Origin: Candidatus Omnitrophota bacterium
Lineage (GTDB): Bacteria; Omnitrophota; Gorgyraeia; Zapsychrales; JBAZNR01
DNA: 64,000 nucleotides
NCBI GenBank assembly: GCA_041649175.1
Contig: JBAZNR010000001.1
Span: forward strand, 258,332 to 322,331
Direction of reading: 5' to 3'
Below the pieces are notes generated by a model. That model made no database searches. It saw only the letters and a program-made list of their open reading frames with translations, and was not told the DNA's origin. Position 1 is the first letter of the stretch. Every line of letters starts with the position of its first letter. A program made the position numbers and the translations under genes. Positions 5,848 through 64,000 of the stretch are shown one piece after another.

Positions 5848-5852
5848 AGCGA

Positions 5853-6647: not shown

Positions 6648-7666
6648 TCACTTTAAAAGAATTAAAAGATATTCTGGATGATCAAGATCCGGAATTTCTA
6701 GAAGATTTAGCGCGCAGGGCCAAGGAAGTTAAAGAACATTATTTCGGCCGCGCCATCGCTTTATACGCCCCGCTTTATCTTTCTAATTATTGCAGCAGCC
6801 ATTGCACCTATTGTGGATTTCACAGCCATAATAAAATTAAACGCATCAAATTAACTCCCCTGCAAATGCATACAGAAATGCGTTATGTGGCAAAGATAGG
6901 CATCGAAAATATTCTGCTTTTAACCGGAGAATCCTACAAGGCAACGCCTTTATCTTATTTGAAAGAAGCCGTTGATATCGCGAAGGGATATTTTTCCAGC
7001 ATTTCTTTAGAAGTCCATCCTATGGACGAAGAAGAATATCGAGAGCTTTATGTAAACGGTGTCGACGGCATAGCGATCTATCAAGAAACCTACGACCGGC
7101 AGCGTTACGCGCAAGTCCATTTATCGGGAAAGAAAAAAGATTACGACTATCGTCACGGCGCGCCTCAAAGGATCGCCCGTGCGGGGATCCGCAGCATTTC
7201 ACTTGGAATTCTTTTAGGGTTATCAGATACGACGCAAGACCTTTATGCCTTATATGAACATTTAAGTTCTATGGAAAAAGATTTTCCGGCTGTTGAATAC
7301 AGCGTTTCTTTTCCAAGATTGCGCACTATTAAAGGAATGGGATTCGCGCCCTGCGACATTTCTGACGCGCTTTTAGTAAAGATCATTTGTTTGACACGGA
7401 TCCTTTTCCCTCGTGTCGGTATTAATTTATCCACCCGTGAAAACTCACGGTTACGCGACCACGCGCTTGAAATTGGCGTCACCAAGATCTCCGCCGCATC
7501 CAAAACTTCCGTCGGAGGATACACAGCCACCGACCCCGAAGAGCTTGACCCGCAATTCGACATTCAAGACGACCGTTCGGTTGCGGAAGTTGTTTTAAGC
7601 CTAAAAAAAAGAGGGTTTGACCCTGTTTTTACCGATTGGCGAAGGATTGAAAATGAACGTTTTTGA
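6644..7666 (+). CDS. thiH: 2-iminoacetate synthase ThiH (radical SAM tyrosine lyase)
   Basis: 340 aa with a [10 protein letters not shown] radical-SAM cysteine triad (CxxxCxxC). Overlaps thiG by 4 nt within the thiS-thiG-thiF context. Confidence 0.75.
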
Positions 7667-31595: not shown

Positions 31596-31925
31596 CTATT
31601 GACAGTACTTAAAGATCCTCTGGGTATCCATAAAGTCAACCTTATCAAATCTTAATCCGGCATCAAAAGCGCTTGGATTAATGGCCCTGCTCCAAACGAT
31701 TTTCCCGCTTAAAATAAGCGGGTCGTGGCCATCAGGAAGCTCCACGACAAGGTCTACTTTATCCTCAAGATTTATTTGCTCTTTGGTGACAATCTTTGCG
31801 CCCTCGGCGGAGATATCACGCAAAAAAACATTACTGCCAAAATCATTCCGTGAATATTGAAACTTAACGGGGAACCTCGCGGTAAAACGATCGAAGACAC
31901 GACGGTCATCTATTTTCACTGTCAT
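31596..31925 (-). CDS. single-domain PilZ protein (c-di-GMP receptor family)
   Basis: 109 aa with RRVFDR (RxxxR) and DISAEGAKI (DxSxxG) motifs. Confidence 0.65.
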   Translation of the reverse strand: MTVKIDDRRVFDRFTARFPVKFQYSRNDFGSNVFLRDISAEGAKIVTKEQINLEDKVDLVVELPDGHDPLILSGKIVWSRAINPSAFDAGLRFDKVDFMDTQRIFKYCQ

Positions 31926-32036: not shown

Positions 32037-32360
32037 TTAAGCAAAATGCTTGCTTAAACTTGCGCGCGAACCATCCAGAATTTCGGTAAATGTCATGCCC
32101 ACACGATAAAGGTCGGATTCCAAAATCTTCGTAACCCAGCGCACTTCCCCTACCGCCACCACCGGCTCTCCTTCAGGCGTTAAGTTAAGCTCTACCAACA
32201 TCTTAGTATCTATCGGAATACGGTTTTTAGAAATAAACCCTACTCCGCCTTTACTGATATCGGTCGTTTGTGTGTCCGAAAATCTTGCCGCTTTTTGCGA
32301 AACAACCGGAACCTGGCAATCGTAACGGGCTGATTTTCTTTTTTCTGCTGCTGATGCCAT
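32037..32360 (-). CDS. single-domain PilZ protein (c-di-GMP receptor family)
   Basis: 107 aa with RKSAR (RxxxR) and DISKGGVGF (DxSxGG) motifs. Confidence 0.7.
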   Translation of the reverse strand: MASAAEKRKSARYDCQVPVVSQKAARFSDTQTTDISKGGVGFISKNRIPIDTKMLVELNLTPEGEPVVAVGEVRWVTKILESDLYRVGMTFTEILDGSRASLSKHFA

Positions 32361-36402: not shown

Positions 36403-36479
36403 CACGCCTCCTCTGTTGGATGATATTGTTTTTATTTCCACATTTCGACTGAACATTTATCTTCTCCTTTCGATCAAGA

Positions 36480-43500: not shown

Positions 43501-46500
43501 GATGAATCTTCTCCACAAATAATGCATCGAAAACACGGTTCTTTGAGATTCCGCCTTCAAGGCCAGGTCACAAATCCAATAATAAATTTCTGTATACCGG
43601 GCAAAAACCCTGTCGTACTTAATAAGCGTCTGGCGCAAAACCTTCGCGCGGGCTTCATTATCTTCCTGGATTGAATTTATCAACTCTTGCGCTTTTTCTC
43701 CCGACAGAGGATTGTCGTTATGATCTTCCGCGATTTTCTCAAAGGGAGAATTTCTTAGGCTGCGCCAAATCACTTCATCTTCCAGACATAGTATTGATTT
43801 TGAAAATCCCGGATCTCCCTGACGTGCCGTGCGATTAAATAATTGTTGGTCTTGGCGCCCAAACTTATTAGGTTCTGCCTGAATCACGACAAGCCCGCCC
43901 ATTTTGGAAACTCCTTCGCCTAATTTAATATCTTCTCCACGGCCCATCATGTTTGTCCCGACGGTAACCATCTTCTTTTGCCCGGCAGTAGCCACAATAT
44001 CAGCTTCTTGCCAAGCGTTAATGCCGTTTAGGACTTGGCAAGAGATCCCGTTCGCATTTAACAGCGCTCCTATTTCATTGGCTGTTTCAATATAACAAAC
44101 ACCAATAAGCACAGGATTTCCCTTAGCGTGCCATTTTTTTATTTCCTTAAGAACTTCCTCATATTTCTTTTTCTTTGTTCCATAAATCACCACGCCTAAG
44201 TCAGTCCGGCGGCAAGGCTTATTACGCGGGATAAAAGATGTCTTTAAGCCATAGTATTTCTGCAATTCATCCTGCTGGCGGCCAATACTTCCGCTCATTG
44301 TTGACGCTCTCTCGGCAACAGATAAGAAAAAGTGATGCTGCGTCATAATAAGCGCCGGGTCATATACTTGCGAAACGGGCAAATGCTCTTTTGTTTCAAT
44401 AAATTGATGAAGTTGTAAAGCCCAAATATGTTCCGGATGAAGCCGGCCCGTATATTCGTCCACGATCACGATCCTGCCATTTTGCACAACATACTCTTTT
44501 TCTCTGCGATAAAAATAATGGGCTTCTAGCGCCACAAAAATAAGCCGTTCAAAATATTCCTGCAAAGCTTTTTTTCCCTTGGGTGTGAGCAAAGCTATTT
44601 GCCGATAATCTAAGCGATAATGAACTCCCTTTGCTAATAAGGATTTATAAATATTGTTACGCGCCATTTCGACGGGATCTTCCTCTTCCTTTTGCTGATG
44701 GTCATTTTTGCTGATCCAGGAAATGACCTTGACAGTGTCGCGAAACCACGCATGATCGATATATTTCACGATAAAATTTTCTACCAGCTTTGCGCGCGCG
44801 TTTTTTCCTTTCTCGGTAAATCGGACATGCTTTGTAGCCGGATTTAAAATGTAATCTTCCCCCGGTAAAAGCCTATTTAAGGATTCCTGATAAAGGATCT
44901 TGTAAAAAGCACCCATATCCCATCCGTCTTTGACCGTCGTTATGATAGGCTCAAAAGCATTATCAATAAGTGTTTCATCGCCTTCATCAATAACGACAAA
45001 AGAAATTTTTCCGGGCCGGCGTACTTGTTGCTGCGCGTCCGTAACTAAATGATCTCGTTCTATATCGTACACAAACTCATCATTAACGCCGTAAGTGATA
45101 TCTGCCGCGTAGGCTTGCTTTCGATAAAGCCGCAGATTCTCTTTTTTGTTGTGTCCATTGCCATTTCCATTCCCATTTTTAGGAACTTCTAAGGGGCGTA
45201 AATTTTTATAATGCGCGCTGCCGTTTTGATAGGAAGGATCGAAAAGGTACGACTGGCCCCTGACAACAACACCGACGCTTAATCCTAAGAAATGATATAT
45301 GCCGCCCATATCATGAGCATCACGCAAGGCAAGATTTTCTTTAACCGTTGCCACATAGACGCCTTGCTCTTTTAAAGCATTTAAGTAAACAGCCGAAACG
45401 GCCGCTAATGTTTTCCCTTCGGAAGATTCCATCTGGATAGCGCGGCCTTGATAAAGTTGAAAGGCCGCCAAAAGCTGAACATCGTAAGGGCGCATTCCCG
45501 TTACCCTGAAAGCCGCCTCACTGACAACCGCAAATGCTTTCGGCAAGATCTCCTCCAAGCTTCCTCCGTTTTTAAGCCGCAGACGAAATTCTAATGTTTT
45601 GGCCCGCAATTCTTCGTCAGAAAGACCTCCAAGCTCTTTTTCAAGTTCTCTAATGCCGCTTAACAAGAGATTACTAAAAAGAACCTCATTTTCTGAGGGC
45701 AAATTATTAACATCCATAACCTTCGAGAGAGAAAGCCCAAAGTTTTTAGCCAAAACATTCACCACATTTCTAGCAATGCCTAATTCTTTGGCAGAAAGCG
45801 TTCGGTTATTCTTATTTCTCCAAAGTGCGCGTATGCCTGCCCACTCTTTAAGCTCTTCCAGCGCCAAATACAGCGTTGGCTCATCTAAAATAGCGATGAA
45901 ATTCTCTTGTGCTTGCCGCATATCACCCTCGGAATAATTTTTCATCAAAATCCTTATACCTCTTGTGCTTATCTTTAACATTTTTGCGGCTTCGGTTTTA
46001 TTGCGGCCGGCCGCTAAAAACGCGTGAAGAACGGCTCTTTTCTTGATTTCATCCCATGTTAAGGCATCGTTTTTAGCAATGTTCAAATACGGCAATATAA
46101 AAATAAAATCATGAAAGGTGTTTTGGTTTATTTGATATTCGGCTATTTTTTGATCTAAATCTTCCTTTGACAGTCCTAAGTTTCTTGCCGCATTTTCTAT
46201 ATCACCGCCGCATTTCGCCAATGCAAAAAGAATTTGTTTTTTCTCTTTTAATGTCAATTCTGCGACGGGGTCTGATTCTTCTCGGTCTTTTTTTGATCTT
46301 TTGCTAACCGCCAAAACCGCGGCGGCAAAAACCATCTCCGTTGGGGCGTGAGGAAAATAGCCAAACACCGTGATCAAGATAAGAACCGCGCCAAGAGGAT
46401 AAACAAGGTTGTAAATCCTCTTTTTCTTTAAAATAGAATAGATCCTCCCCCGAAGATATCTCTGCAGCATAATGGGGTAAAGATTGCCGAAAATATTAAA

Positions 46501-49500
46501 GATCCCTAAAACAGAAAGTAAAATCATTCCCGCTATTTGAATAATTCCTGTTGTCAGCAAACTTACGGCCAATAATCCGCCCATGACAGAAAGCACGATC
46601 AAAGAGTATATGTAGTGGATCGTTTCCATTTCCCTGGTTGTTGTCTCTTTTCTTTTTAATGCCTCAGCGGAGAAGTGATCGACAAATACACTCGGCGGTA
46701 ATTTCTTAATATCTCTCAGCAGCCATTTTCTAAACATCTTGATCCCGAGAAGCTCATATAGTTTGCCGCTTCGTTCGAAGAATTTCGGCTTAAAAACAAA
46801 CTCAGCCCGACGAGGATCTTTTAAAAATACATTCACTAAAGATGTGGAGAAGTAGGAAATCACAAGAACACCCGCAATCAAGATGAGAGAAGCTATCCCA
46901 ATAAGAACGGCCGATAAAGAAATAATAGCGAAGGATTTAGAGGAAAGAATGGTGGTGGCAAGAAATATCGTGGAATTCATCGACCCAGGGGCGAAATTTC
47001 CAAACAGATATTCCAGCATTCCCCAAAGTACCACAAACCCTGTAAGCCCAAATCCGATCCAGCCGTGAAGCTTTTCTCCATCAAGCTCTTTTAAAGAATC
47101 GTCTTCTTGCCGAGAATGAATATCCTCAAGGATGTTCTTTAAAGGTTGATGAACTCTTTGGACAGAAATAATTTTTGGGCGCAAGTATGGTATTTCTCTC
47201 AATACTGCGACACTCAGCCGAGGAGAAAAATTGCCCACTTCAAAAAAAAGATTAGTTCGGATATTGCGAAGTGCTAAGCCCCCGATATACGCACTCTTGC
47301 TCTTACCTAATTTTATGCCTGGCCTCATCACTTCAAAAGTACTACCATTCGCCCCATTAAGCACATCACCCATTTGCAAATCTTTAAGTAAAAATTGATC
47401 AGCAGGAATAGTGAGGGTTGCCATTTTTTCTTCTTGTGAAGGAGAGGAAGGAGCCTGAGCCAAAGAATTTACCGGAGAAACACTTACTACCGCTGTTAAA
47501 ACTGCGGCAGAGAAAATAAAGCGTGGGTTGAGATATTTTATCGGTGGCGCCTGGGCGAAATGGCCGAAGAGATATCCCAAAACTCCCAACAATCCTACAA
47601 ATCCAAACAACACCCAGCTGCAAAGTGCGGTTTCTTGGGAATCTAATACAAAACCTTTTGTTTGTTCTTTAGCTGACTGAGATCTATCAAGGGAACTCTT
47701 CCGAGCAAGGGCATGACCGGCTAAGACAATAAATTCGCCATTTCCCACCGGGAAGAGCAGTTTATTAGCTATGAAAATGTAAACTGCTTTTTTCATGTGC
47801 TCTGTAGATTTAATGATTTCCAACGAGGCTTTATCCAAGATTCTTTCCAAAGTTAACCGCGCCCCAATACCTGCCGCAAGGCAACATCGTTCTATTTCTT
47901 GAAGATCAACCAATACAAATTCGCCCAACGTCCCTAGTGCTTCTTTTGAGTTAATTTGAAATCTTTTTTGGAATCTGGAAATATATACCGCAATCTCTTC
48001 TGGAGTAAGAAGTTTCTCCCATGCCCTATCGGGTAGCGTGATAGACGAAACATGTTTTAGACGCTTAAATTCCCCGTTCATTCCGGGAAGAGCTAAAATT
48101 AAAATTCCATTGCGTTCATATCGAAATATAAAGCCGCGCTTATAGCTTAACGCCCCTAATATTTTTTTGATGGTTACGACAGAATTGATCATCGACAACG
48201 GCACTTGATCATAAACGATAAAAGTATTTTCCGTAAGGCCGTTAAAATAGATCGATAGCATGTCGACCCAAAATGATTCAAAATTGTCTAGGATTGGCTG
48301 GCTTTGTTCTCTGGAAAAACCCCAAACTTCAAGATTACGGATAAGTTTTTCATCTTCCCGCAAAAAAAGCGCAGGAACACTATTAGAAACACTTTGTGGA
48401 CGACTTGCTGAGCGTTTACTTTTTCCGGAGGATCGTTTTGAAGATACTCTATTTTCTTTCTGACTACTCTTTCTTAGAACATCATCTTCGTAAATCTTAT
48501 TCTTAATATCTTCCAGCAAGTGTTGTAACTCGCGGATACGAACCAAGAATCTTAAATCATCAATACCTTGGCTTAAAGGATCTAGTTGCGACAATGCCAT
48601 CTCGGCATCTTTATGATCAAAGTATTCTTGATAAATTTCGATAAGCGCCTTGGTCTTTGAGCGTAATTTTTCTGCATTCGCATCAGGAAAATTTTTCTTA
48701 GGAGCCCGCAAAGCAATCCATTGACTTAAACGTACGTCTCTGGTTTTTGTCGGTTCCTTAAAAACCGGAATGATATTCTTCAAGTCCCTAGCAGGAGGCA
48801 CCTGCCGACCGATATATGGATCAATTAGGTCTAGTAGCGCCTTAAACCGTGAGCGTGGCAAAGTTTTAAGGAAGAACTCGGGATTACTATCAATAAGCTG
48901 AGCAATTTGACGTGATGTAAATCCAAAAAGGCTTAAAACAAGATACAAGAAATGGAGGAAAACGACAGACTCTAAAAACCTTTGCTTGGTCCAATTTGAA
49001 ACCCGGTACCAATACGTGCGGCTAAAAGAAACCCCGTAGTTTTCAGGAATACGCATCCGTTCTAAAATCTCTTCCGGTAACCGAAGCCTTTCCCAAACAA
49101 CATCCGGAACAGGCCCAATATATTCCGCATCATCTCGTCCGGATAGAACAGATTCTTTTCCCGCCTTGTGCTGCGCCTGTATTTCTCGTAATTCTTTCCG
49201 AATCCTGTCTTCCTTATAATTAGATATTATAAGAGCAGAGATGGGCATTTTGAATTCATCCTGAAATATTCTTGCCTTCCTTAAATATTCCGACGGAGAA
49301 ATCTTTCTTTGGATATATTTCGGAAGTCTATGATATTCAATACCGCGGGCACGTAATTCTCTTAAAGCCGCCGGACGCCCGCTATTGCTCATTTCTTTGG
49401 CTACGCGCATTTTTTTGTTCTCGATCAAAAGAAGCCTTTGGCTATGCGCTGGCTCTGCAGCCAAATCACACCGTAACGGTTTAAATTCAACGACTAAACT

Positions 49501-52500
49501 CCGCAAAGGCCTATTTTTTAGAGTTCCAAAATCAGCCTCGGTAGCCAATCGAAATACCGCCCAGGCATATTCACCCGGATTTCCTAAAGAAAAGCTTAAT
49601 CCTTCAATGCCCTTACACCAAAGGCATGTTCCTAATTGCTCATGCTGGGCTTTACGCAATTTAACTAATTCCCTAGAGGGAATCGCCTTGGTAAATTCTT
49701 CAACGTATAAACGTAATTCGGATTCTATTTTCTCATGGGAAGGAGTTTTGCATAAACTTAACCCCAAACTCTGACAACGCGCGCGAACTTGATAAGGCCA
49801 TTGTCTTTTTCTTAAACCATCAAATGCTTTGATCATTTCTGTTGCCGTCGGAAATCTTTCATGAGCAATCGTTAAGGATTGATGAGCCGTACGGTATTCT
49901 TGATCGGTTGTCACCGATCTTCTTGTGCTTGTTTCCTGTTTTACCGTCGCCCACGCCATACCCAAGGGCGCGAAAAGAGGCAAAAACGCAAATCCGTGAA
50001 GCTTTTCTTCCGTCATTCCCTCAACCGCTTTTTCCCAGTAATCAAAAGAGTCCCCGATAACATCAGAATAAGATTCATTCAGTTTCTTAAGTGCCAAAAA
50101 TAAAGCTGTTGCCTGATCATTTAATCCAACTAAACGTAATGATTCAAGGATTCGCGTAAGGCGTAGAAAATTGTCATTCGGTGAAGATAGCCAAACACGG
50201 CTTCTATTCTTAAATCCCGGGCTATGGACGACGCGCAGGCCATTTTGACTGTTTCTTAAGGCAAGCCCATAGAAGGAAAGCATGACCTTAAGGGATCGGA
50301 TCATATTTGATCTAAGGTTTTGACCGATTTTTGTATCGGCACGAAAAGTATCGGCAGTTTCCCGGGTTAAAACAGGAGGAACAACCTTTTCTCCTAGGTT
50401 ACGGCCCATGATTTCCCACACAAAAGCACCAAGGCTTTTTGTAGGGAACAATAACTGTATAAAATTGTGGTCTTCTTCAAGCTGCTCATGGCTAAATCGC
50501 CAAATATCACGAATATATCTTCCTTCGTGGTCTGTTCTTCTTCCCAAATAAAAATCAATCAGTTTGTCATTGAATCCTGTAAGCGGCCATGAGTCATCCC
50601 CCACCGTTCCTAGGGCCGGCAAGCAGAATAAAAGCGAAATAAACGGTAGCCCGAAACAACAAAGAGCTTCCGATACAATTTTCCTGTTTTCCAACACCAC
50701 AAATTCTATTTTCCGTGCCGTGATGACATAATATTCCGTCGGGAAACCTTTGCTGTCGTAAACCTGCTTAACGGTAATGCCGCTATACCTTTGAGATCGC
50801 TCAAAATAGTGTAAAACTAAATTTATCCTTTCTTGGGCAGAGTGATGATCATTCCACGTTTTAGTTCTTGCTGAAGGATCGGAACGGTCGTCAAAAACAA
50901 CAGCAAAAGGCGCGCCAACTTTTAAAATTCGGTTAACCTCTCTAAAAAATCTCCTCGGCTGTTTAACATAGGCAATGCCGTTTTTCATCAATACGCCCGA
51001 AGCGTAATCATTCGCCAGTAATCCTAGCCCCCGATTGACATCAAAAACAATGCCTTGGGTGAGCCTTTGATTTGCGCGTAATTCAACTTGATTTAACCCG
51101 ATGCCAATAAATTCTCCCTGAAGAGTGCGCGGAAAATATGTCTTAGCGCCGCTCATCAGGTCAACAAAAATAGGTTTTTTGATCCGATGATCATTTTTAA
51201 AAATACTCATTAAGGCATGTTCAATGGCGATCTCTTGTTCAGTATTGGTATAACCGATCAAATTAGGCTTCTGCCAAACGGAAGATAGGTTTTCTACCGT
51301 CCCCCACAGCCCAAACGGCAAGAAACAAGCAAGATTATTTTGTTTCTGGAAAATATAAGCTCCATTTCTTGCCCCACCGTAAGCAGGGCCGTTATAACCA
51401 AAAATAGCCCCCTGTCTTTCTAACCCCAAAAGAACACCATCTTGCACCAAGGTTAGTAACCCGCGTGCGCTACGCTCCATAGCCCTGTCGCTATCAAGAA
51501 TGACAAATCCTCCGGGCCTTAAGAACTCTTCAATAAGCCGAGCTGATAAAAGGAATTTTCCGTCTCTAATATAAACATCACCGGCTTTGATAATGATAAG
51601 ATCAACCCCTTGGGACGCTTCAAGATGACTTCGATAGGAATCAACGGCTAAACCATCCGTTTTTTCAACAAAGATCAAAGAACGCTCTTTTCCCTGCAGC
51701 ATAAAATTCAAACTGAAAGTACCCGCGTGGTGGCCGGTCGAATTTAAATCAATATCAGTCACACCGCTTGCCCTTAGCTCTTTCTTTAAAAATGGCCATA
51801 TCCCTTGGCACATCCACAACAATTCATTCGAGATAAAACCCATTCGGCTTTTTTCTATTAAATACAATTCGATGATCTTATCTTGGTGTATGGCGCAACG
51901 CGGATCAATATCATCCATCTTGCCGCCTGTTAGCATCATCATAAGCTTGATCATCAAAAAATATTGAAGAAGCTGCTGTTGTTGCTCTTGAGAAACTGCA
52001 TTTAGATTTGTGTGAAACGGAAGTTTTTCGATAAAAATAAATTTGGCGGCATTGGTCGTAACCCAAGCTGTAGAAAAATCAGCGGCCGGCCCGATCAAAA
52101 GCGCCACTCTTTGTTCATTGTCTCTCATGGTTTCTGCGCTGTTAACAATTTCGCGGATACGGCTCATGTATCGGAAATTCAACTCTCCGCCAACCAACAT
52201 TTCCACGGACCAGATTGCCGATGATCGATCACCGCTTCTATTGCCCACCGTCGCCCACACTAAACCTAGCGGCAGACAGGCCGACAGTATAAAGCAGGAA
52301 AGTTTTTCTTGCTGTGCCGGCGAAGCGGAACTATCAGCAAAAAATTCATCCCAACCGCTGTCCATCCAATCGGCCTTCTGAATTAAACCAAATTTAGCGA
52401 CAATTTCTCCCTTTAACTCACGCGTGCACATGTTTAAGTTAACGCTCATGCTCCCGCTAGAATGAACCACGGTTGTTCCGACGCGTTGTGAGATTTTCTC

Positions 52501-55500
52501 GCGAGGATTAAATCCCGCGCTTGTTAGTTTCTTAAAATCGAAACTCAAAACTATCGGCTGACTGGCATAAATCATACGATAGCCTTCTCCGACAGCACCG
52601 GGAGAAAGAAACGCCGCTACATCTTCTGGTTCATAACCGCTACTGCCCTCTTCGACAAACGGATATATTATTGCGCGCGCATGCATATCGGCAGATGCCG
52701 CTTCAGTAATCAGTTCAACATTCCCTCGGCCAAAAACCCAGCCTTCAGTTTCTAATGCCCTGTCAACAATCGCCGTAATTGTGCCATGATAGAAAATAGG
52801 TTGGAGAGGGGAAAGCGTTTCGTCATTTTCCGCGTCCACCGTCCCCCACGCCAGCGGTAGTGAAAACACAAACAGCATCACAAAAGCAAACGTTCCCTGA
52901 AGTTTATCATCGTGTCCGGTATTTTGAATAATCAAATCCCAGCGAGGGTTTAATTCTCTCATCTGAAGGTCTATAGCCCACCAACGGGAAGCATATTCAT
53001 CGTCGGCTTCTTGGATCCTGTAAGAATTAATTTGGTCTTTCGAAATGCCTTGGCGCTCAAAATATCGTCCATAGGACGCCAAGCGGGAGATGCCTTCCGA
53101 ACGTTCGATCAAGATATGGATATCCGGATCTAAATCGTGATGGTCCAGCCATTTGGGCGCATGGTAACCTTCGACCACGATCACCTTGGCTTCTTCGCGA
53201 TGTTCGTAAGGTAGTAAGAATTCCGGATTTTCTTCACTGTAAACACTGACATGGTGGCGGAGAATTCCATCCAGCTCTCCTTGAGCAATTAAACGGCTTA
53301 AAGTTGTTTTTCCGCGCGCAGGCAATCCGCAGATACTGATCACTACCGGTTCTTCGCCCCTTTCTAATCTCTCCTCGATCATAGCGCTTAATTCTTTTAA
53401 TCCCTCCCAAAGATCATTAGCGCGCCGCGGAGCGGGTTTTCTGGCCCAGACAACCATATTGTGATTCACAACAACGGCAAGATCGGAAAGTTCAAAACCA
53501 TAATCGTCGTCGGTTTCCTGATTAGCGGTGTAAGAGCCGGATCCCACTTCGAGATTTAATTCCTTTCCAACTGCCTTAAGCATCTCTTCGTATTCTTGTG
53601 CCGTCATCGGCTTGATGGATGGATCTCGATTAGTTGCTCCTAAAAAGTTACTGGGCCCTTCATCCATACTGCGATATAGAATAACGATGTATCCGCCCTC
53701 TTCCAAAAGCTCAAAAGCTTGCTTCAAGATTCTCGCCCTGTCTTCCGGAGAATAGAAAAATAGGACGTTAGCAATGGTGATGATATTAAATTTCTCTGCA
53801 ATACCGTTTTGATTCAGCAGATCTTTTATATTGAGAATATCTCCTTCGATAAGCCGGATCTGTGTGTTGGCGCGAAACGGCTCTAATTTTTCTTTTGCCC
53901 ATTTGAGCATTTCACCGGAAATATCCACGCCGACAATTTCGGCGGCGCCGTTTTGCGCAGCCAATTCAGCGACCATCCCGGTTCCCGTCGCCAAGTCCAG
54001 AACTCTACTTCCCTTAACATGATCGAGCGGAACAGCCGCACCAAAAATAGATGCCGCCGCTTTCCTCATTGCCACTTTTACGCCGATATCATAATTCCGC
54101 CGAACGGCAAAACCATCGTATTGTCTTTTGAGGTTTTGCGCGGTAGATAAAGATTCAAGATACGCATCAATGTCTGCTTGTGTTAACGCCGCGGAAAATA
54201 TTTCCCGTTCCCAGCTCATCGTCGAACGCACGAGTCCATCTTGAATACGTTTTATTTTTCTTTCGTCAAAATTAAATCCTTCAAACCCCTGGCCTATTCC
54301 TCGTCGAATTCCGGAAATAAAAATATCTTCCTTATCGCTATTTTCCGGCTTTGCCAAGTTTTCCGCGACACCGCTAACCAAGACAATATGTTCCACAAAC
54401 TCTTCATCAGGATAATGACGGACAAATGCCGCAAACGCTTGTCCTATTTGTTCTGCCATATCATTAACAAATAACATGGTAAATTCATCTTTCGAATTAA
54501 CAGCGTTGCTCATTCCCCTTAAAATGCTATCAACGGCGCGAGCCTTCAATATCTGCTCATCTTCGTTGAGTGAATCTGTAGCGCTAATTAAACGCGATAA
54601 ACTTTCATAGTCGGTAACACCTTCGGGAAGTTCTATATATTGCAAAGCCAAACGATTGTCCCCAACAGCTTCCATAAACGCCGCGGCAATCTTCGGCCCG
54701 CCGAACAGGTCTTCAAAATCAACTCTGCCTTCATGCTCAACGGGATGTTGCCCCTTAGCCGTAAAGCCAACAAATTCCCATTTAAGCGAAGGCAAAGCAA
54801 ATGGCCCATTGTCATGAAAAGTAGCTTCGATAACATGGCCTAATTCTAAGATCTCATTTTCTTGCCCAAAATAGGGTTTTCTGTTTTTCCCGGCTGTTCC
54901 ATTATTTCCGGTCCCTAAAATAAATGCCATACCATCTTGGACTTGCGCCAATCCTCCGCGAGGACTGAATTCTCCCAAGAGAGCCGCTTCGCAATCATTG
55001 TAAACAGCCACTGCAATACGATAACCGTATTGATCATTAAGTTTCTTCTCTAGCACGTCTTTAAGAGGATAATTTTCAAACGGTAAGTTAGCCGCTTTAA
55101 ACGGTGTTCCGACGATGCCGCGATAAGAATCCACAGGACCGGCAAAGGCAATTCCAATTTTTATAACTTTTTTATCCGGCAAGCCGGTGATGATATTTTC
55201 AATTTGAAGCAGAATGCCCTCAATGATATTGTCACTGGTCGCAGATGCCGTGTATTTTTCTTTCCATTTGATAGCGTCCACAGTCGCAATGATATTCCCT
55301 TGTACATCTACCGCCCCGGCGCCGATCTTAGTTCCACCCAAACTGATCCCGACAGATACGACTGAATCTTTTATAGAGAAAAGTGCTCCCATCGGCAAAA
55401 AGGCCGAAAGTTTCTCTGTCTTTTGCCCACTACCATTGTCCTCATCCGAAATGATTTGCTCAGGCCGTCCATCAAAATAAACAGCTTTCCAGTGTAACCC

Positions 55501-58500
55501 GTCGTAAACAACAACGCCCGCGTTACGCCCAAATTCGAGATGTTTTTCAGCCAAAATAATATTGGTATTGATGACCTTGCCATTTTGAGTCCAGCGAATT
55601 TCTTTCGCCTCTTTGTGTCCGACGATCTGCGGCAGTAAAAGATTTTCCGGGGTTAGATTAAGTTCATCATCAAAGTCAGCCCAAATAATACCGCCTGGTT
55701 TATACCCGCTTTGCCCGCGTTTTTTGGGGCCAAAGTGGGCATTGCCGCGCTCAAAAACAATATCGCTAAAATTATTTGCCCTAATCGCCTCTACTAAACG
55801 ACGATTCAACTCTTGGGCAATATCTTCCATCGGCAATAAATTCGGCCGATCATTTATTTTTATGGCAATATCTTCATCGGTTAGTTCTTGCGGATCTTTA
55901 TCAAGTTCCTGGGCAATGAGAAGAATTGATTCCGGATGAAGTTTCTTAAGTAAATGCGCCGTAATATGCGGCAGCATTCCACCATGAACCATTAAGCGGT
56001 CGTGGATATGAAAGGCGGCCACCATTTCACCTGAAAGAATGGAATTTCGCATTTCCGGAATGATTTCAGTGGCTCGCTTATCTTCCGGTTTTCCCTGAAA
56101 ATGCTGGAGCTCATGATTTCCGACAAGCGTTACCAAACTATTAGCCTTTGATAAAGCCTTTCGATGCAGCATGTGCAAATAACGATACAGCTCTTTTTGA
56201 TATTTGCCGCGGTCTAAAATATCCCCGATCACCACAACCGTAACGCCGCACACTTTCCACTCATCATTCATGAAATCGCTTCCAAATTCAATGATGCCAA
56301 GCTTACTTAAGGCATTGCGCACGCCCCACAGCTCTCCGTGGGGGTCACCAATGATAACCGTTGTTACGGCGGCTAAGGTTTGCGCTTCAAGCAATTCCCC
56401 TTCAACTCGAATAATGCCGTCCCCAAAAGTAAGCGAAGCGTTTGTCCATGTTTCTCCTTTATCGGTGGAAAATACCGGCCGGATAGAATATGATCCCGGG
56501 CGGGTCATGAGCACTCTTGCCTTAAAAAGATAGTTATTACCCTCAAATCTTAGGAATTCCAGAGGAGTGAAGGAATATGGGGCTTCATCTTCGAATTTAA
56601 TTTCGAGAGTTGCCGCTATGCTATGAGCAAAAATAGCGTCGTGAAGTTTCCGGGAAACATACGCCTGAGCATAGATCTCTATCATTTGACCGGATACGAC
56701 TTTAACCGTTTTTCCGGAAAATGGGCCGGCATAACTTTGTGCCGCGATATCCAAATTGCCGGCCCAAACAATTGGGGCATGCCCTAAGTCGCGATTAAGA
56801 ATTCGTGCAAAATCAGCAATGGAGAATTCTTCAAGCTGCATTAACTCCCCGGCCAGGTCCAACCGGACCTGGGCCCACTCTCTTAAATTCCATTTTTGGT
56901 GCGCGACCCATGCCCCCTGCAAAAGTTGAGTAACAAGATAAAAATAAACCCTTAATAGAAATAACTTTTCCGCATCCAAGGACAAATCAACTGGGGATAA
57001 ATGAACCGTGCGTTTAGAATATGTTAATCCATATCGCTTTTGATAAGTCGTCAGAAATTCGTGCATCAATTCTTCGATGTGCCCTATCAATAAGGCGTTA
57101 TTTTTTCTGGCATCAATAAGGCCCAACAGCGCGTTGGCTAATTCTTTTGTTGCCGCGTCAAATCCGCCTAATTCAGCATCGATCCAGGCCATCACGTGGC
57201 CGGAGTCGCTATCAACAAACCAATTCCAGGGGAAAGGATCGCCGTGAGTAAGAACTTTTTGCTCACCTAAAACAACGTTGTAAAATTTATTGAAGAAATC
57301 TATAACGGCGGGAGGATGAACCGAGGCAAGGTGCTCTTTGAACTCCGGGTTATCGATCATGCCCATTATTTTGTCTAACAATGTCGCATAATCGCTTCTT
57401 GAGACCGGCTGAGCCGTTGGATAGCTTTTGTGAAGGCGCGCTAAGCCGCCGGCGGCGGAACGTAACGTTGCCTTAACTTTTTCAATATCAGACCGGGGAC
57501 GATGTAAAAAGCCAAATTGACTTATTAACCCTAATCGATTTAAATTCTCCAGAACAAGAGCCCTGGCATTGTCATTGAATAATAGAAGATGGGGGCGCTT
57601 ATACGGATTAGCCTCAACAAAAAAACATTTCTCGGCTTCATAAGCCTTGGGGGCACTTGTTTTGTCCATATAGATCTTAATAATGTATTCCCCCTCTAAG
57701 GCTTCAAAAACAATGCGGCTTTTTACCGAGATCAAAACTCTCCCCTTTAAGTAATTAACTAACTCCGGCAAGCTCATATCACCGGCGGCAAAGAAATTAA
57801 GCAATTCTTCAATGTATTTTAATTCCTCATCTGGACTCTCTTGCTCTTTGACCATCGCCCAAAACCCAAGAGGGAAAAATATTCCGGCAAAACCGTTAAG
57901 AGATTGTCCGTCTTCTTCATCCGACAATAGTTTACCGATCTTGGCTCTTAGCAATCCTACAATCGCGCTATGAAGCTGGGAAATACGGCTTTCTGTTAAA
58001 TTTAACAACCCCCCGATTTCTCTCATGCTCATGCCGTTAAAATAGTATTGTTGAATGATCGTACGGTCCCGGGCGGGAAGCTTTTCAATATATTCACGCA
58101 AAATAGAAACTTTTTCTAAGGCGACAACCCGTTCGTGAATGTCTTCATCCGACGGAAATAATGCTTTTAAAGAATGTAGATCGTTGCCTGTCGTTCTTGA
58201 AATGAAATTATCCAAAGAATCAAATCCGCTTTGACGGGCATAAATAATCGTACGCAGCTCTTCGATCCCGATATGAAGCTCCGCCGCTATGGCTTCTTCC
58301 GTCACATATCCTCCGGAAATAGCAGCCAATTTATCCACCGCTTCATTTAATTTATTGATTTTGGCATACATGCCACGCGGCAAATGATCTTGGGAACGTA
58401 GGAAATCGATGAGCTCTCTTTGAATACAGCCAAAAGCGTAAACTTCAAACGGAACATCTTGGCGGTTATTGAAATCCCTCGCGGCCGTAAACAGCCCAAT

Positions 58501-61500
58501 AGAAGCTACCTGCTTTAATTCTTTGAGCATTTGGGAATCTTGTTGAATTTTTTGGGGTAGTTTTCGATAAATATATCTGGCAACGCGATCGGTAAGATAC
58601 GAATACTTCTTTATCACCTGTCGATATTTGTTTTCTTCTTGGTTTTTCTCGTAAACAGCTTTTTCGCTTTCAAAATGAATGCCATAAGATTTAATTCGCC
58701 ATTGAAGATTTCTTCTCGACAAACCAAGCTCCTGGGATGTTTGATCCTTATCGAATTTATTTTCCTGCAAAGCATTCAATATTTTCTGACGTTTAGCCTT
58801 GAATTTAAACTCCCGATGAATTTTTTTCACATCAATTCTTAGTTTCTTTAAGTACTTATATAAAACTACCTTACCAATATCCAGAAATTCGGCTAACTTA
58901 GGAACATCGCCCTGAAACTGGTTAAGCAAAGCTTTAAGAACTTTCTTTCTTTTCTCTCGGATAGTTCTTCTTACAGGAGCATCGGAACGCAATCCTGATT
59001 TTCTTATATGGCCATATAAAGTCCCTTTTCCGATTTTTAAGAATTCGGCTAACTTAGGAACATTATTCTGGAACTGATCAAGTTGGATCTTAAGGGTTTC
59101 CCTTCTTTTGTCTCGAACAATTTCTCTCACGCGAATGCCGGCGCGCAATAATTCACTATTTAATACGGCCCTGTCGCATTCGAGAAATTCGGCGGTTTTC
59201 GTAATATTCCAGTCATGCTTTTCTAAAAGCTCTAATAATTGTTGTTTTCGCGCTTTTTTATCTTTTCGTTCCAAGGAGAATAACTTATAGCGGCTAAATA
59301 ATAATTCCCGGAGGTAGCCCTCACTCACACCGCGAGCTTCGGCTGTCTTGGCAATATCATCACCGTGCGCTTTAAAGTCTTCACGCAATTGTCTTTTACG
59401 ATTGCGTTGTTTTTTCTCACCCGGACGAATACCATAACGGCTAATCCGAGAACGCAGCGTATGAATGTTAATATTTTCACCTTTGGCTAATTCTTCGGTA
59501 TCCCAATGATATTTGTTGAGTAAACGTAAGAATTCGTTCTTGCGCCGATCTCTTTTTTCTCGTCGCTTAGACCTTGGATGGTTAGGAGATTCTTCTTTTG
59601 TATTTGCAACCATGCCAAACACAGCAAAAGGAAATATAAAGCTATTAAGGGCTTCTGTTTTCTTATTCGGCGAAACAGGTTTTAACCGAATTGCGAACGT
59701 GGTTCCCTCTCCCGGAGTAGATCGCGCGACAAAGATCTCGCCACCCATTCGCTCGATACTACGTCGCGCGCCGCTTAATCCAACACCAGTCCCATCCATG
59801 ACAACTTTCTTGGCCTGATCAGTGCGATAGAAAACTTTAAATACCTTCGCCATATCCTCAGGGGCCATTCCCATACCATTATCGACAACATCAACCCGGA
59901 CCCAAGTTGTTCCGTTATTGTTCTCCTCGGAAATACCGATTTTGACCAAATTACCGCCGTATTTTTTGGCATTTGTCAAAAGTTCGATCATCACCTGCTC
60001 TAATTTCTCCTGATCTATTAATACCGGCATGCGTTGCTGAAGAATATCAACAATAAATAATGGATCGTGTACAACAGCTTCTCCTGAGGTTTTGACATGG
60101 TTCTTAAGAAAAATCCTTGGCAGCCATGAAGCTAAATTAACATCCTTTATAACAACGGCCGGCTCAACGATCTTTCCGGAAACTAGATCATGCAGTCTTG
60201 TCGTTAAAAGCATGAAAGTTTCATAGGAAGATTTTTGTTGTTCTTCTGCTTCCACCTCCGGGATCCGTGATGAGTCCAGCAAATCCCGTGTTGCGTTAAT
60301 AAAAGTAGTCAAGGAATAGTACGTCACTCTCAGGCGCTTAGTCTTTTGCCCAATATCAATACGCAAAATGATCTCTTCTCTTGTAACTCGAGCGAGGTCT
60401 TCCATAAGCTGATTGAGAGACCCGCTATGAACCGATAAAGCTTGCATTCGATATTGCTGTTCTTCGCCGGGAACTGCGTCTAGATCCAAACGGGAAAGAG
60501 CCCCTAACATGCTTTTTAAGAATTGAGACAGGATGTCGATCTCATTTTCTCTTAGCATGCTGAGATCTTGTTCGCCGTATTCCTGTAATAGGCTCCCCTT
60601 TCTTTCTACTAAACCTTGCCAATCTTGTGTTTGGTTCATGAATTCCCGGGAAACAAGCTGAAGTTTTGCCAATATATCGACAAATTCTGGAAAACGCTTG
60701 GCGGCTTCATAAAGCCCTGATAGATAATTACGAATATCATGAACGGTTTCCACGATATTGTGGGCGTTACGGCTCATATTCAATGTATTCTCAACACTCG
60801 CGTCTAAATTAAGCCGGTCCATCACCAGCGTAACTAATTGCGCTATCATCAAAATGTATTTCGTTTTAAGCTGTTGGTCTTCTTCGCTATAAAACAAAGG
60901 CTGGGAAACGGATAGATCGGCCGATGAGGCGGCTATTTGCCAATTATCCATCATCAGGATGTAAGAAATTTCTCCGCTAAACGCGTCAATAATACCGATA
61001 TGAAACACCTCTTCTACGCGCCCCGCGTGCTTACCGCCGAAATGAACGCGGTCGGATTCAAACATAAGCCTATCAACAAAATGTTCATCATCCATTAGCC
61101 CATTGTCGCCGATAAAATGATCACTGCGTTTCTTGGTATGCAATAAAAGCGGCTTCCCCTGAGCGTTCATGCGCTCAAAAGTATTGAGCGCTCTTAATTT
61201 CTCATCGCTGGAATCAGAAAATACTTCTTTGTGACGGCTGGGGCGAAATCCACCGCGCGAGGCATCCAAAACATGGCTGACCTGCCAAACATTGTCAATT
61301 TTTCTAACCTTGTAAAGCCTAGCCCGGCCGATGTGCAGGACTTGAATGATCGCTTTACTAAAGATATCCTCCACTTTTTCTTTGTGTTTAACGGAGAAAA
61401 GGGCTACCGCCAATTGAATGAGATTTCCCACATGCCAACGCGACGGCGAATAATCGACCAAGTTGCGCACGGCTGCCCCTGAGAATAAAACATCGAAAGA

Positions 61501-63996
61501 CGCGCCAGCCAAAGCTATTTGTTCATTATTGGACATACGCCGCAGAGCTTCGATATGTACCTTTGATGAGCGCAAGACCCGTAAGAATAACCCCATGATC
61601 TTTTGCGCTGATCTAAGCGGCCCGCTTTGATCGATCACCTCTTTGAGTATCTGGCGCGATAAATATCCCTTTGAATAACTTCCCGATAATTCTTTCAGGC
61701 GTACCTTAAGGGCAAGGACAGGTGTAATGAAAATATGGTTTACTCTTCCCGAAATATCGATAGGTGCCGAGGTTTTTAATTGGAAATTCTCCAGAAGAAG
61801 GCTCATGGTCTCATGTTCTTCCGAGGCTTTTTGAAGCGCGGTAGAAATATTTACTTTCTGCTGATAAGTAAGGTCTTGGACTTGGATCTCGTTTTGTTGC
61901 GGCAAAATTCCCTGCTCAGCACCAACAAGGCTGTCGCGAAGCGCATCTATTGCTTCGATCAAATCCTGATTAGCGATTTGCAAATTGGAAAAGACGGAAT
62001 TGATATTTTCCCACTCTTTATTCTTCAAAACCCGACGGAAGAAAACCCTAAAGATCCCTAAAGCTAATATTTTATCGCCTACGCGCAACCGCCTTGATAG
62101 CATCGTCATGTCAAGATCAGAGAATCTTAAAGCCTTTATTTGCCTTTTACCAATGTCCATGGCAAGATCATTTAACTCATTTTCAAAATCATCGTCTAAG
62201 GAAAGTTTATAGTCACTAAGAGCTTTTAGATAGACCCTGAATTTCCATGGATTATCTCTAAAGTAAAGAATGCTTTTGTGGCGGGCTAGGGCTTCCTCAT
62301 CGCCATCCAAATGCGAAAATTCATGGCGGAAAATATCTTCGCGGATAACCCAAGAAAGGTCAAAGTGTTCGGCAGGAATATGAGCCAAGTGAAAGAAATA
62401 TGGATGTAAGAATATGGTTTTGATTTCCCCATCACTGAATGCGATGTGGCTACGGGTCAGATCAAGGTCGGTGGTGATAACTAAACGCCAAGTACCTACG
62501 GCCGGCGGTGCGCGTCCGTTTTCGCTAAGGCGTTTAAAAACATTTTGCATAATTTCAAAATGCCCATCGTAAAAACCTTCAGGATCCGTTAAATCAAACC
62601 CGGATATGAAGACATCGGTTAATGTCTTTTGAATACCGAATTGTTCATCCGCCTTCTGGGCGGCTTCAGCCGGAACGCGCAGAGGATAAGCGGCAGTAAC
62701 AGGAAGATTCTCCGGACAGCTGTTATGAGGAGAAAAGTCATCATTTACATTACTCACCATTCCGAACAATGCCGGAATTAGTGAGTCGAATATATTTCCG
62801 ACTGAAGGACAGAAGCATGCCAGAGAAACTTCTTCTAATCTTGTCAGCAGAAATATTTCCTTGGGATCATATCCGGTCAGCACAATAATGTTCTCTCTGG
62901 CGAGAATAAATCTTTCCACATGAAAAACGTTAGGAAAGATCTTAAAGGCCCGTTGAACACCTTCAAGAGACGTAATATAAAAAAGTTTCCTGTGACGGAT
63001 AATTTCTTCTATGGAAACAGTTTTTCCAAAACCTTTGCTCAGTAAATACTTAACGATGATCTGTAGGTCATCTCGGATAAACTCATGTAAATTCTCCCTG
63101 GCTTCGCGCTGAGATTCAATCTTAAAATCCCGTTTGATCCTTTCAATGGAATGTTCGATTTCCTGCCCGCTTAATAAACCTTGAATAGCTTTATCGCTGA
63201 CAGATATATTTTCAATTTGTCCCATTGTAGAATCTTTAGGCAGGCTTTCCGCTTTGGGAGATCTTAAAATTTCAACTCCGTCTTTAAAATACCGGAAAAC
63301 AAAGCCGTAATCTTGGCTTAAAATGCCTAAAATCCGTCGGGTAATCTCAGTAGAAGCGGCAAACTGTGAATATTTAACAATGTCTTTCCCCTTTTGCCCG
63401 GCTGAATGAGACTTTACCATTTCCAGATATCTCGCAAAATGAGAAAAATAGGCAAACTCAATATTGCGTAATATTGTGCGGATTCTATCATTGGATAAGT
63501 TCCATTTTTTAGTTAACAACTTTATCAGATTCCGACGTTCTTGATGCGTTAATATAGAAATCTCTTGCTTACTGACTACAGTAGCACTTTCTTTCTTTTG
63601 GCTTGAAGCGGCCGCTAAGGATTTATTGCGGGGCTTAGAGGATTCCTTTTGCTTTTGAAGAGCCGCTTTTAAATTATCCAAGCTGAGATGAGTTATTTGC
63701 TCCAAAACCGGCTCGAAACCAAATTCTTCGTAAATGAGAAGCTTTTCAAAGAAAGAAGACGGCGTATTTCCGGCTCTTACCCATTTTGGAAGTTCTTTGT
63801 AAATATAGCCTTTTCGCTCTAATTCACGCAGTGCAAATTCCCTATCAACGCCAAATTCTCTTTTCACTTTGACAATCCCATTTTTGATGCTCAGGTAACG
63901 CTGTGCGTGGACAGGTTCTGTTTCTTGATCAGCCCCATAAGGCTTGAAAGACACAATAAGATCACGGCTTTTATTAATTCTTCTAAAACTAATCAA
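40576..63996 (-). CDS. giant multidomain protein of at least 7,806 aa; signalling, enzymatic and SecA-like mosaic; N-terminus unresolved at the window edge
   Basis: A single stop-free reading frame of 23.4 kb in AT-rich DNA. The first in-window codon is TTG and the frame stays open to position 64000. Recognisable domains are listed as separate entries below. Confidence 0.85.
   Translation of the reverse strand: [7806 protein letters not shown]
42037..42609 (-). other. giant ORF domain: C-terminal array of three Fis-type HTH motifs
   Basis: [91 protein letters not shown] (aa about 7130-7320). A further pair lies at aa about 5910-6020, just before the SecA-like module. Confidence 0.55.
43297..45669 (-). 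other. giant ORF domain: complete SecA-like motor (NBD1 with Walker A, NBD2, helical scaffold)
   Basis: [76 protein letters not shown] (Walker A rc verified at about 45400-45430); [45 protein letters not shown] (DEAD-like); NBD2 [16 protein letters not shown]...[15 protein letters not shown]; scaffold [20 protein letters not shown]. Each matches a canonical SecA signature in the expected order (aa about 6110-6900). Confidence 0.75.
46297..47634 (-). other. giant ORF segment: cluster of about 8 predicted transmembrane helices
   Basis: [150 protein letters not shown] (aa about 5455-5900). Confidence 0.6.
50077..50589 (-). other. giant ORF domain: OGFr_N-like (opioid growth factor receptor conserved region) domain
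   Basis: [44 protein letters not shown] resembles the ..H.YIQWLFPL.E.G.N...P.LT core of PF04664 (aa about 4470-4640). Confidence 0.4.
52897..53355 (-). other. giant ORF domain: P-loop kinase (Walker A [9 protein letters not shown], 6-phosphofructo-2-kinase/zeta-toxin-like)
   Basis: [17 protein letters not shown] (rc verified at about 53300-53345), at aa about 3548-3700. Confidence 0.55.
53662..54039 (-). other. giant ORF domain: class I SAM-dependent methyltransferase fold
   Basis: Motif I [11 protein letters not shown], then GVDIS, LIEGDI and EEGGYIVI (aa about 3320-3445). Two or three further MTase-like folds follow at aa about 4040-4220 and 4250-4430 ([10 protein letters not shown]...[21 protein letters not shown]...[11 protein letters not shown]). 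Confidence 0.55.
54637..55374 (-). other. giant ORF domain: ROK-family sugar kinase fold
   Basis: [28 protein letters not shown], ELGHV (aa about 2875-3120). Confidence 0.65.
55597..56364 (-). other. giant ORF domain: PPP-family calcineurin-like metallophosphatase
   Basis: GDPHG (IIGDPHG), GDxxDRG ([10 protein letters not shown]), GNHE (LVGNHE), HGG (MVHGG), at aa about 2545-2800. Confidence 0.7.
56737..57819 (-). other. giant ORF domain: aminoglycoside-phosphotransferase/choline-kinase-like kinase fold (APH family)
   Basis: [42 protein letters not shown] matches the HGD...N and (I)D(F/W)E..G.GD..DLA catalytic and activation motifs of PF01636 (aa about 2060-2420). Confidence 0.6.
57922..58599 (-). 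other. giant ORF domain: sigma-70 family factor-like (regions 2, 3, 4)
   Basis: Region 2-like [41 protein letters not shown]; region 4 [45 protein letters not shown] (aa about 1800-2025). Confidence 0.7.
58642..59529 (-). other. giant ORF domain: array of four Fis-type helix-turn-helix motifs
   Basis: [94 protein letters not shown] (aa about 1490-1785), in a basic, Arg/Lys-rich context. Confidence 0.6.
59677..60009 (-). other. giant ORF domain: GHKL/histidine-kinase-type ATPase (HATPase_c)
   Basis: N-box [11 protein letters not shown]1 VDNGMGM (rc at about 59868-59886 verified), G2 GTGVGL, at aa about 1330-1440. Confidence 0.7.
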
Positions 63997-64000
63997 GATC

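Follow-up and report, generated by a model that had tools for sequence, protein, structure and literature searches.

The minus strand of a 64,000-nucleotide stretch of DNA from Candidatus Omnitrophota bacterium (assembly GCA_041649175.1, contig JBAZNR010000001.1, positions 258,332 to 322,331; hereafter the window) carries the end of a giant open reading frame (ORF). Very probably this ORF encodes an Omnitrophota multi-enzyme protein of at least 24,212 amino acids (aa), built of linker-separated cassettes, two of which are diverged paralogues without a Pfam match that arose by an old duplication of a whole cassette. The frame is free of stops from 40576 to the window edge at 63999 (7,807 codons), and residues are numbered here from its first full codon, so that residue i begins at 63999-3(i-1). 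This numbering differs by a residue or two at most from that of the original prediction made on this DNA, which had described the internal duplication of an N-terminal module of roughly 400 aa. The parts of the ORF that matter for the duplication are the following.

40576..63999, minus strand: C-terminal 7,807 codons of the giant ORF, based on the open frame, Pfam domains that all lie in one frame, and an identical contig
62755..63999, minus strand: copy 1 (short form), residues 1-415, cut on its N-terminal side by the window edge and ending at linker 1
63724..63966, minus strand: sub-module A of copy 1, residues 12-92 (RDLxVxFKP, EPxHAQR, LPK), 39% identical to residues 4833-4914, z = 27
62869..63504, minus strand: sub-module B of copy 1, residues 166-377, the winged-helix-like part (ILGxLSxxxGFxFRY) plus the C-terminal extension, 30% identity, z = 30
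47551..49941, minus strand: copy 2 (long form, 797 aa), residues 4687-5483, a complete cassette between linker 9 and a variant hydrophobic linker
49504..49908, minus strand: N-terminal helix-turn-helix (HTH) and first beta-domain strands of copy 2, residues 4698-4832, from the alignment and an AlphaFold2 (AF2) model
49258..49503, minus strand: sub-module A of copy 2, residues 4833-4914, by BLASTP to copy 1
48325..49257, minus strand: all-alpha region of copy 2, ~310 aa, residues 4915-5225, without counterpart in copy 1, modelled with a predicted local distance difference test score (pLDDT) of 70-88
47713..48324, minus strand: sub-module B of copy 2, residues 5226-5429, by BLASTP to copy 1

Two diverged copies of one module

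Comparison of residues 1-450 with residues 451-7807 by BLASTP gave two collinear matches, one between residues 12-92 and 4833-4914 (39% identity over 82 aa, E 1.5e-12) and the other between residues 166-377 and 5226-5429 (30% identity over 216 aa, E 1.2e-18). The corresponding Smith-Waterman scores of 148 and 204 compare with means of 26 and 34 over 500 shuffles (z = 27 and 30), and copy 1 as a whole scores 234 against the copy 2 cassette, whereas no other stretch of 800 aa in the ORF scores above 52 with it. The three pairs of peptides given in the original prediction are all contained in the two BLASTP matches, and the internal duplication that it proposed is thereby borne out; significant self-similarity was found, where its absence would have spoken against the proposal. 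A tiled self-comparison of the ORF revealed no third copy inside the window. The other internal repeats that it detected are HTH_8 units at residues 1477-1661, a pair of hydrophobic linkers at 5434-5510 and 5621-5698, and tandem HTH units at 7046-7260.

It is next to inconceivable that this similarity is due to chance, to biased composition, to an HTH motif of a generic kind or to a segment duplicated artefactually during assembly. No support for such an origin was found, though the giant protein has many other HTH-type repeats, and it is opposed by collinear matches at E 1e-12 and 1e-18 with z values of 27-30, by the lack of any comparable score elsewhere in the ORF, and by the presence of the same architecture in independent proteins of other assemblies. 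An identity of 30-39% in the absence of DNA similarity between the copies (none by blastn) is not what an assembly duplication leaves behind. Furthermore, window positions 29884-50493, which include copy 2 and not copy 1, are identical (20,610 of 20,610 bp) to part of an independent Logan assembly, the 83,333-bp contig SRR8542065_7826, and exact matches to proteins of an NCBI metagenome-assembled genome (MAG) were obtained for ten genes within the window's first 24 kb. Judged from the alignments, the two stretches are true paralogues.

While the recurrence of the module stood up to this comparison, its description as a contiguous block of roughly 400 aa did not, as the two matching parts are split by ~310 aa in copy 2 (4915-5225) versus ~73 aa in copy 1. 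The unit is instead a linker-bounded cassette, which measures 797 aa in its long form and 415 aa or more in its short form.

Extent of the giant ORF

The protein continues far upstream of the window. On SRR8542065_7826 the gene call for the giant ORF is 24,212 aa long, with its stop at record position 10,693 and its beginning at ~83,331, 2 nt from the end of the contig; the call is therefore 5′-truncated there too, and its length is a lower bound for the giant product. The first residue in the window corresponds to about residue 16,406 of this partial product, and the window contains the C-terminal third or less of the giant ORF. In the real product, copy 1 thus sits no earlier than about residue 16,400, and the label of N-terminal module that it had been given has to be dropped.

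The list of ORFs on which the original prediction was based gives a TTG start at 63996 (63996-63994), which is the first possible start codon past the edge; the preceding codon, ATC, is a sense codon, and four bases remain before the window ends. Because even the 24,212-aa call on the identical contig is truncated by the end of that contig, the apparent start at TTG is an artefact of the window edge. That the ORF truly starts at this codon, with copy 1 forming the N-terminus of a 7,806-aa protein, draws on the mechanically generated ORF list and is highly improbable, considering that the codon upstream of the TTG is sense and the window merely ends there, that the identical contig yields a call starting only 2 nt from its own end, that the very first residue already lies within the region homologous to copy 2 and to the free-standing proteins P0001 and P0002 (see below), and that the window edge falls within a predicted beta domain. 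The suggestion that the protein extends further upstream is therefore upheld, both by this call and by the 75-150 conserved residues that the homologues possess before the cut point. The observation that had been named as evidence against it, a stop near the edge followed by a TTG or ATG start with a suitably placed ribosome-binding site, is contradicted by the same call. An exact 60-mer from the window edge had no match, and protein-seeded scans with residues 1-1200 found no relatives, in genome or metagenome contig collections.

Relatives and layout of the module

A profile of the two copies matched five clusters among 1.84 billion representative proteins. P0001 (977 aa) and P0002 (1,031 aa) are complete free-standing genes in an ordinary chromosomal context (ENA sample ERZ27276474), with an Rrf2 regulator gene on one side and a DJ-1 family gene on the other, and each encodes an N-terminal signal peptide followed by a long and then a short copy of the module in tandem. 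P0004 is a 3,561-aa ORF that takes up a whole contig (10.7 kb) of GCA_024653845.1, runs off it at both ends, and holds two long copies of the module with hydrophobic segments after each. P0005 (5,035 aa) has a single copy at residues 2690-2980, again followed by a hydrophobic segment. P0003 was not counted as a family member, its match being a short repeated helix motif only. Word-indexed homologue searches with copy 1 and with a nine-sequence alignment of the family gave no match. Because the family also occurs in free-standing proteins of ~1,000 aa with an N-terminal signal peptide, one cannot conclude that a position in mid-protein is the normal one for the module. The genes for P0001 (L001 7301-10234) and P0002 (L004 715-3810) divergently adjoin the Rrf2-family regulator gene, a pairing that is kept on two contigs of the same ENA sample.

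P0001 and P0002 resemble the window copies throughout most of the module, from the HTH and the beta domain with its RDLxVxxKP...EPxHAxR motif, through the GIDYExLP helices and the all-alpha region, to the winged-helix-like end, and they, too, hold the long and the short form together in one protein. They differ from the giant ORF in being stand-alone genes with an N-terminal signal peptide, in having their two copies adjacent rather than 4,400 aa apart, and in having neither the C-terminal extension of 150 aa nor the hydrophobic linker that trails the window copies. The beta-domain motif and GIDYExLP-type helices are found in both window copies and in P0001, P0002, P0004 and P0005, and the nine-sequence alignment contains invariant P, E, P, H and G columns. 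The C-terminal winged-helix-like element, LKRALGxLSxxGFxFxY..G..VL, is present in both copies (ILGILSQDYGFVFRYFKDGVEIL and ILGALSYKRGFIFRYERNGILIL), and the VPF..YW...FLHxVLxLYG motif of the copy 2 all-alpha region is conserved in the long-form homologues. Every homologue has 75-150 conserved residues, comprising the HTH and the first beta strands (GLPxSLG), N-terminal to RDLxVxxKP. The window ends 11 residues before this motif in copy 1, and the copy 1 equivalent of the HTH and first strands of copy 2 (GLPxSLG) would fall beyond the edge.

Residues 4698-5364 of copy 2 are collinear with residues 57-687 of P0001 (E 1e-33), the 310-aa stretch included, and copy 1 aligns with the short form of P0001 (E 1e-15). 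Because the stretch of ~310 aa is collinear with free-standing homologues of ~1,000 aa, it is, on these alignments, ancestral and not an insertion, and copy 1 is a shortened form.

The AF2 model of the copy 2 cassette, built from a nine-row alignment (mean pLDDT 63.6), places in order a three-helix HTH, a beta domain of 7-8 strands, helices, the all-alpha region, a winged-helix-like element, the extension and a linker helix. The all-alpha region is predicted with confidence (pLDDT 70-88), and a helix and a beta hairpin make up the winged-helix-like element. For copy 1 a three-row alignment gave a model too poor to use (pLDDT 49), which shows only the last four beta-domain strands; because it starts with these, as opposed to the 7-8 strands of copy 2, the window edge falls inside a predicted beta domain.

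A strongly hydrophobic stretch of copy 2 at residues 5007-5030 (FLESVVFLHFLYLVLSLFGF; window 48930-49001, minus strand) would score as a transmembrane (TM) helix by hydropathy. It corresponds to the FLHxVLxLYG helix, which is conserved and belongs to the all-alpha domain that AF2 predicts with confidence (pLDDT ~85), and in this model the helix is probably buried rather than a TM segment. Hydropathy-based TM counts for giant proteins may therefore include buried helices.

With respect to function, the N-terminal HTH of P0002 matches Sigma70_r3 above threshold (27.6 bits), and the C-terminal element of P0001 shows a weak match to a GntR-type winged HTH, below the cut-off (E 0.0037). We propose tentatively, and with slightly more doubt than conviction, that the module may be a nucleic-acid- or protein-binding unit (HTH plus winged helix) that is tethered to the membrane in its embedded copies by the hydrophobic segment that follows. 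Of all parts of our account, this proposed function is the one in which we place least confidence.

History of the duplication

We infer that the most likely history is an intragenic duplication of the whole cassette. The duplication appears to have taken place within the gene lineage because the two window copies alone share a C-terminal extension of ~150 aa (residues 260-400 and 5300-5450), for which the nine-sequence alignment offers no outside homologue, and because they group together in a neighbour-joining (NJ) tree of 179 ungapped columns (80% bootstrap). Because the copies are without nucleotide similarity, it would be old. The duplicated unit would have consisted of an HTH, a beta-rich domain, the GIDYExLP helices, an optional all-alpha region of ~310 aa, a winged-helix-like domain and a hydrophobic segment. 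Following its duplication as a whole within the giant-gene lineage, long ago, the copies would have diverged for a long time, with copy 1 losing the all-alpha region and copy 2 keeping the ancestral long form; the first ~3 beta strands and the HTH of the short-form copy 1 would lie beyond the window edge.

The copies might instead descend from separate, already diverged genes, for example of the P0001-type long and short forms, which were fused into the ORF at different times. Such an origin would be consistent with the existence of free-standing homologues that already hold both forms, with the signal-peptide-like linker that precedes each cassette (linker 9, ahead of copy 2, occupies the position that the signal peptide has in P0001 and P0002), and with the distance of ~4,400 aa, filled by unrelated cassettes, between the copies. 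It does not readily account for an extension that is common to the two window copies and has no outside homologue, nor for their clustering in the tree, and we regard it as rather unlikely. The growth by segmental duplication that the original prediction had read from the matches thus holds insofar as the copies are true paralogues; intragenic duplication as its route is a graded conclusion, weighed against such fusions, and concerns old copies without nucleotide similarity.

Several observations limit or weigh against this account of the module, its history and its function. Support for the tree is modest, at 80% NJ bootstrap on 179 columns, and the identity between the copies in sub-module A (39%) is barely above that of copy 1 to P0001a (36%). 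The shared C-terminal extension could be ancestral and have been lost elsewhere, and it is poorly modelled by AF2, which treats copy 2 with moderate confidence overall (pLDDT 63.6, predicted template modelling score 0.34). Neither copy has a Pfam or NCBIfam match, the module has no PDB match by sequence, and a Foldseek search of PDB with the copy 2 model gave nothing at E <= 1e-3; its faint matches of nucleic-acid-binding and oligonucleotide/oligosaccharide-binding (OB) type are not relied on. Finally, the giant ORF was read directly only as far as the window edge at position 64000, and its length of 24,212 aa is a lower bound.

Linkers between the cassettes

Nine hydrophobic stretches of the ORF end in [FW][GAS][MT]V, at residues 415, 1464, 2050, 2877, 3721, 3918, 4235, 4466 and 4686 (window 49942-62832, minus strand), as compared to an average of 0.17 and never more than two such linkers in shuffled sequence.

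62755..62832, minus strand: linker 1, ending at residue 415 (...SLIPALFGMV), which closes copy 1
50602..59685, minus strand: span with linkers 2-8, ending at residues 1464, 2050, 2877, 3721, 3918, 4235 and 4466
49942..50019, minus strand: linker 9, ending at residue 4686 (EEKLHGFAFLPLFAPLGMAWATV), before copy 2 and at the signal-peptide position of P0001 and P0002

The linkers take the form (E)KLxxF...P.G.[FW][GAS][MT]V, in which (E)KL usually comes first, Pro or Gly always occurs 4-7 residues before the small residue, and position -3 is aliphatic in most cases. These linkers separate units that are coherent in their Pfam content. The cassettes contain a HATPase; HTH_8 repeats and a sigma-70 unit; APH and Metallophos; and ROK and a methyltransferase. 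The others comprise two without confident annotation, one with a weak, sub-threshold methyltransferase match, and OGFr_N; copy 2 begins 12 residues after linker 9. P0004 and P0005, which are fragments of related giants, lack the linker motif.

Under the -3/-1 rule this layout is that of a classical type I signal-peptidase site, and the linker sequences suggest putative processing sites. It is possible that the linkers are ordinary TM helices, the default reading in the literature; however, some of their cores span only 12-13 residues, which is short for a TM helix, and Pro or Gly occurs in all of them.

A more far-reaching proposal is that the giant ORF encodes a bacterial polyprotein, in which each cassette, the duplicated module included, is preceded by a retained signal-peptide-like linker and is cut from its neighbor there. 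Each linker would then consist of a weak basic n-region, a hydrophobic core containing Pro or Gly, the residues (A/V/L)-(W/F)-(A/G/S), a predicted cut, and (T/M)-V. If signal peptidase did the cutting, or else the two secreted S8 subtilases encoded alongside, a dozen or more proteins would be released from the visible third alone, and the free-standing P0001-type genes of other bacteria would represent the unfused state of one such cassette. A simple signal-peptidase model is at odds with the cytoplasmic-type chemistry of most cassettes, and consecutive identical signals pose a topology problem. On balance we judge the polyprotein proposal unlikely.

Flavivirus polyproteins are cut by the host signal peptidase at internal signal sequences. 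Insofar as its linkers are concerned, the giant ORF resembles them in joining unrelated functional units within one ORF with hydrophobic segments in between, and its linkers may be likened to the flavivirus sites in that the residue at -1 is small, the one at -3 is aliphatic, and Pro or Gly occurs at -4 to -7. In contrast to those polyproteins, the cleavage sites of the giant ORF are only candidates, its cassettes, which include kinases, a sigma factor and a SecA ATPase, look cytoplasmic, and its consecutive identical signal-like segments are a topology problem in a bacterial membrane; this is an analogy, with no membership claimed. If the polyprotein proposal were true, it would supply the cleavage points that are stated as not known in bioRxiv 10.1101/2023.11.21.568195.

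A second type of linker occurs in the C-terminal part of the ORF, at residues 5456-5483, 5646-5675 and 7412-7444 (window 46975-47650 and ~41600-41800, minus strand), where it ends in F(G)HFAQAPP, FGNFAPGS or LTAHAPP. Two of these linkers are homologous to one another (residues 5434-5510 versus 5621-5698, E 4e-4).

Comparison with Omnitrophota giant proteins

The giant proteins of Omnitrophota have been described as having numerous TM regions, a divergent SecA without scaffold and wing, and methyltransferases, and it was proposed that S8 or C39 peptidases might cleave the giant product (West-Roberts et al. 2023, bioRxiv 10.1101/2023.11.21.568195). GH2 genes in the flanks, repeated Pfam domains in 65% of giant proteins, and repeats that are ancient at the nucleotide level have been reported as well (Nielsen & Lui 2026, bioRxiv 10.64898/2026.06.07.730766). 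The size limit is >=10,000 aa in the catalogue of Nielsen & Lui and >30,000 aa (a gene of >90 kb) in the "giant" set of West-Roberts et al.; the published frequency of TM or hydrophobic segments in Omnitrophota giants is roughly one per 370 residues (DeepTMHMM), and class 1 is defined by many distinct enzyme and regulatory Pfams on one polypeptide, including PF02518, PF08241 and PF00480. Machinery for type II secretion and type IV pili, along with glycoside hydrolases, further characterizes the flanks of such genes.

The ORF fits the multi-enzyme giant proteins of Omnitrophota, i.e. the "Archaeovorin" type of West-Roberts et al. and the class 1 "multi-enzyme metabolic clusters" of Nielsen & Lui. 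At 24,212 aa or more it exceeds the limit of 10,000 aa, and for the limit of 30,000 aa only this lower bound is at hand. Ten proteins of the window are identical to NCBI proteins in the range MFA5059245-67, at least nine of which carry "MAG" and Candidatus Omnitrophota bacterium in their names; the contig that encodes them is 1,225,647 bp long. Like other members of the group, the ORF belongs to an Omnitrophota genome and combines many unrelated Pfams, among them HATPase_c, methyltransferases and ROK; all of its domains (HATPase_c, Methyltransf_11/25/31, ROK, APH, Metallophos, Sigma70 r2/r4, HTH_8, OGFr_N, CrtO and SecA) lie in one frame. It also possesses a divergent SecA with DEAD and PPXD regions near the C-terminus, behind a TM cluster: SecA_DEAD, SecA_PP_bind and P-loop_SecA match at ~residues 6112-6695 (window ~43900-45660, minus strand), after the TM cluster at 5456-5886, which includes a CrtO-like membrane domain (5735-5859), and the Pfam match list for the ORF contains no SecA wing or scaffold family. 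A search with the SecA region returned only ordinary SecAs of 31-40% identity that carry PF07516, and no giant relatives. Twenty hydropathy peaks in 7,807 aa, or ~1 per 390 aa, approach the published frequency, with the qualification that they were scored with a Kyte-Doolittle window and not with DeepTMHMM and that at least one of them (5007-5030) is probably a buried helix. GH2 and sugar-uptake genes lie nearby, and the repeats are ancient at the DNA level.

Unlike other Omnitrophota giants, the ORF, as far as it is visible, lacks HEAT repeats, glycosyl transferases and dockerins; its S8 proteases are encoded by separate downstream genes rather than being N-terminal domains; and no genes for a type II secretion system (T2SS) or pilus, only two PilZ genes, are found in the 40 kb downstream. 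Moreover, the window module differs from the repeats counted in the two preprints in that it is Pfam-dark and thus invisible to Pfam-based counts.

Three further cassettes are of interest in their own right. In residues 1465-2050 (window 57850-59607, minus strand), several Fis-type HTH_8 units are followed by a sigma-70-type unit in which regions 2 and 4 are above threshold and region 3 is weak; a sigma-factor-like unit thus lies inside a membrane-associated giant protein. The 220-aa cassette at 4467-4686 (window 49942-50601, minus strand) is an OGFr_N domain (opioid growth factor receptor N-terminal; E 3e-17); it is unusual for this domain to form a separate unit between linkers in a giant protein of a bacterium. 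In the cassette after copy 1, whose first 900 aa are otherwise unannotated, an HExxH motif (FRHEFSHLDGD) occurs at residues 559-563 (window 62311-62325, minus strand); from the motif alone it is a candidate that could represent a metalloprotease-like site.

Neighboring genes

Downstream of the giant ORF lie two genes for S8 subtilases, followed by two PilZ genes; GH2, GH94 and sugar ABC/MFS transporter genes are found downstream as well. The visible 40 kb in this direction contains no T2SS or pilus genes.

36480..40493, minus strand: S8 subtilase S8a, secreted, with FG-GAP repeats, directly downstream of the giant ORF
32476..36456, minus strand: S8 subtilase S8b, secreted, with FG-GAP repeats, a paralogue of S8a (39% identical)

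Both S8a and S8b begin with a signal peptide, and they are candidates for a processing protease. The real start of S8a is the ATG at 40493 and not the TTG at 40601, from which the gene would overlap the giant ORF. In exact look-ups, the ATG-start form of S8a and S8b were on record, and the TTG-start form of S8a, GH94 and MnmG were without a record. The two small PilZ-domain genes, at 31596-31925 and 32037-32360 (both minus strand), follow the S8 pair according to gene calls on the identical Logan contig, which hints at control by cyclic di-GMP near the giant-gene locus.

Implications

The duplication is real, old and ordinary for this gene class. By itself it adds little, since repeated domains are the rule in Omnitrophota giants and are known to be ancient. 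It does serve as a worked example in which Pfam-dark cassettes have been duplicated as well, such that repeat counts based on Pfam underestimate growth by duplication. Because the module belongs to a rare family, with five clusters among 1.84 billion representatives, that occurs both free-standing and embedded, it provides a direct handle on whether giant genes grow by the fusion of ordinary genes. The conserved, lineage-specific linker motif marks the cassette boundaries exactly and makes it testable whether, and where, giant proteins are cleaved. The linker motif and the free-standing relatives of the module are the leads most worth following.

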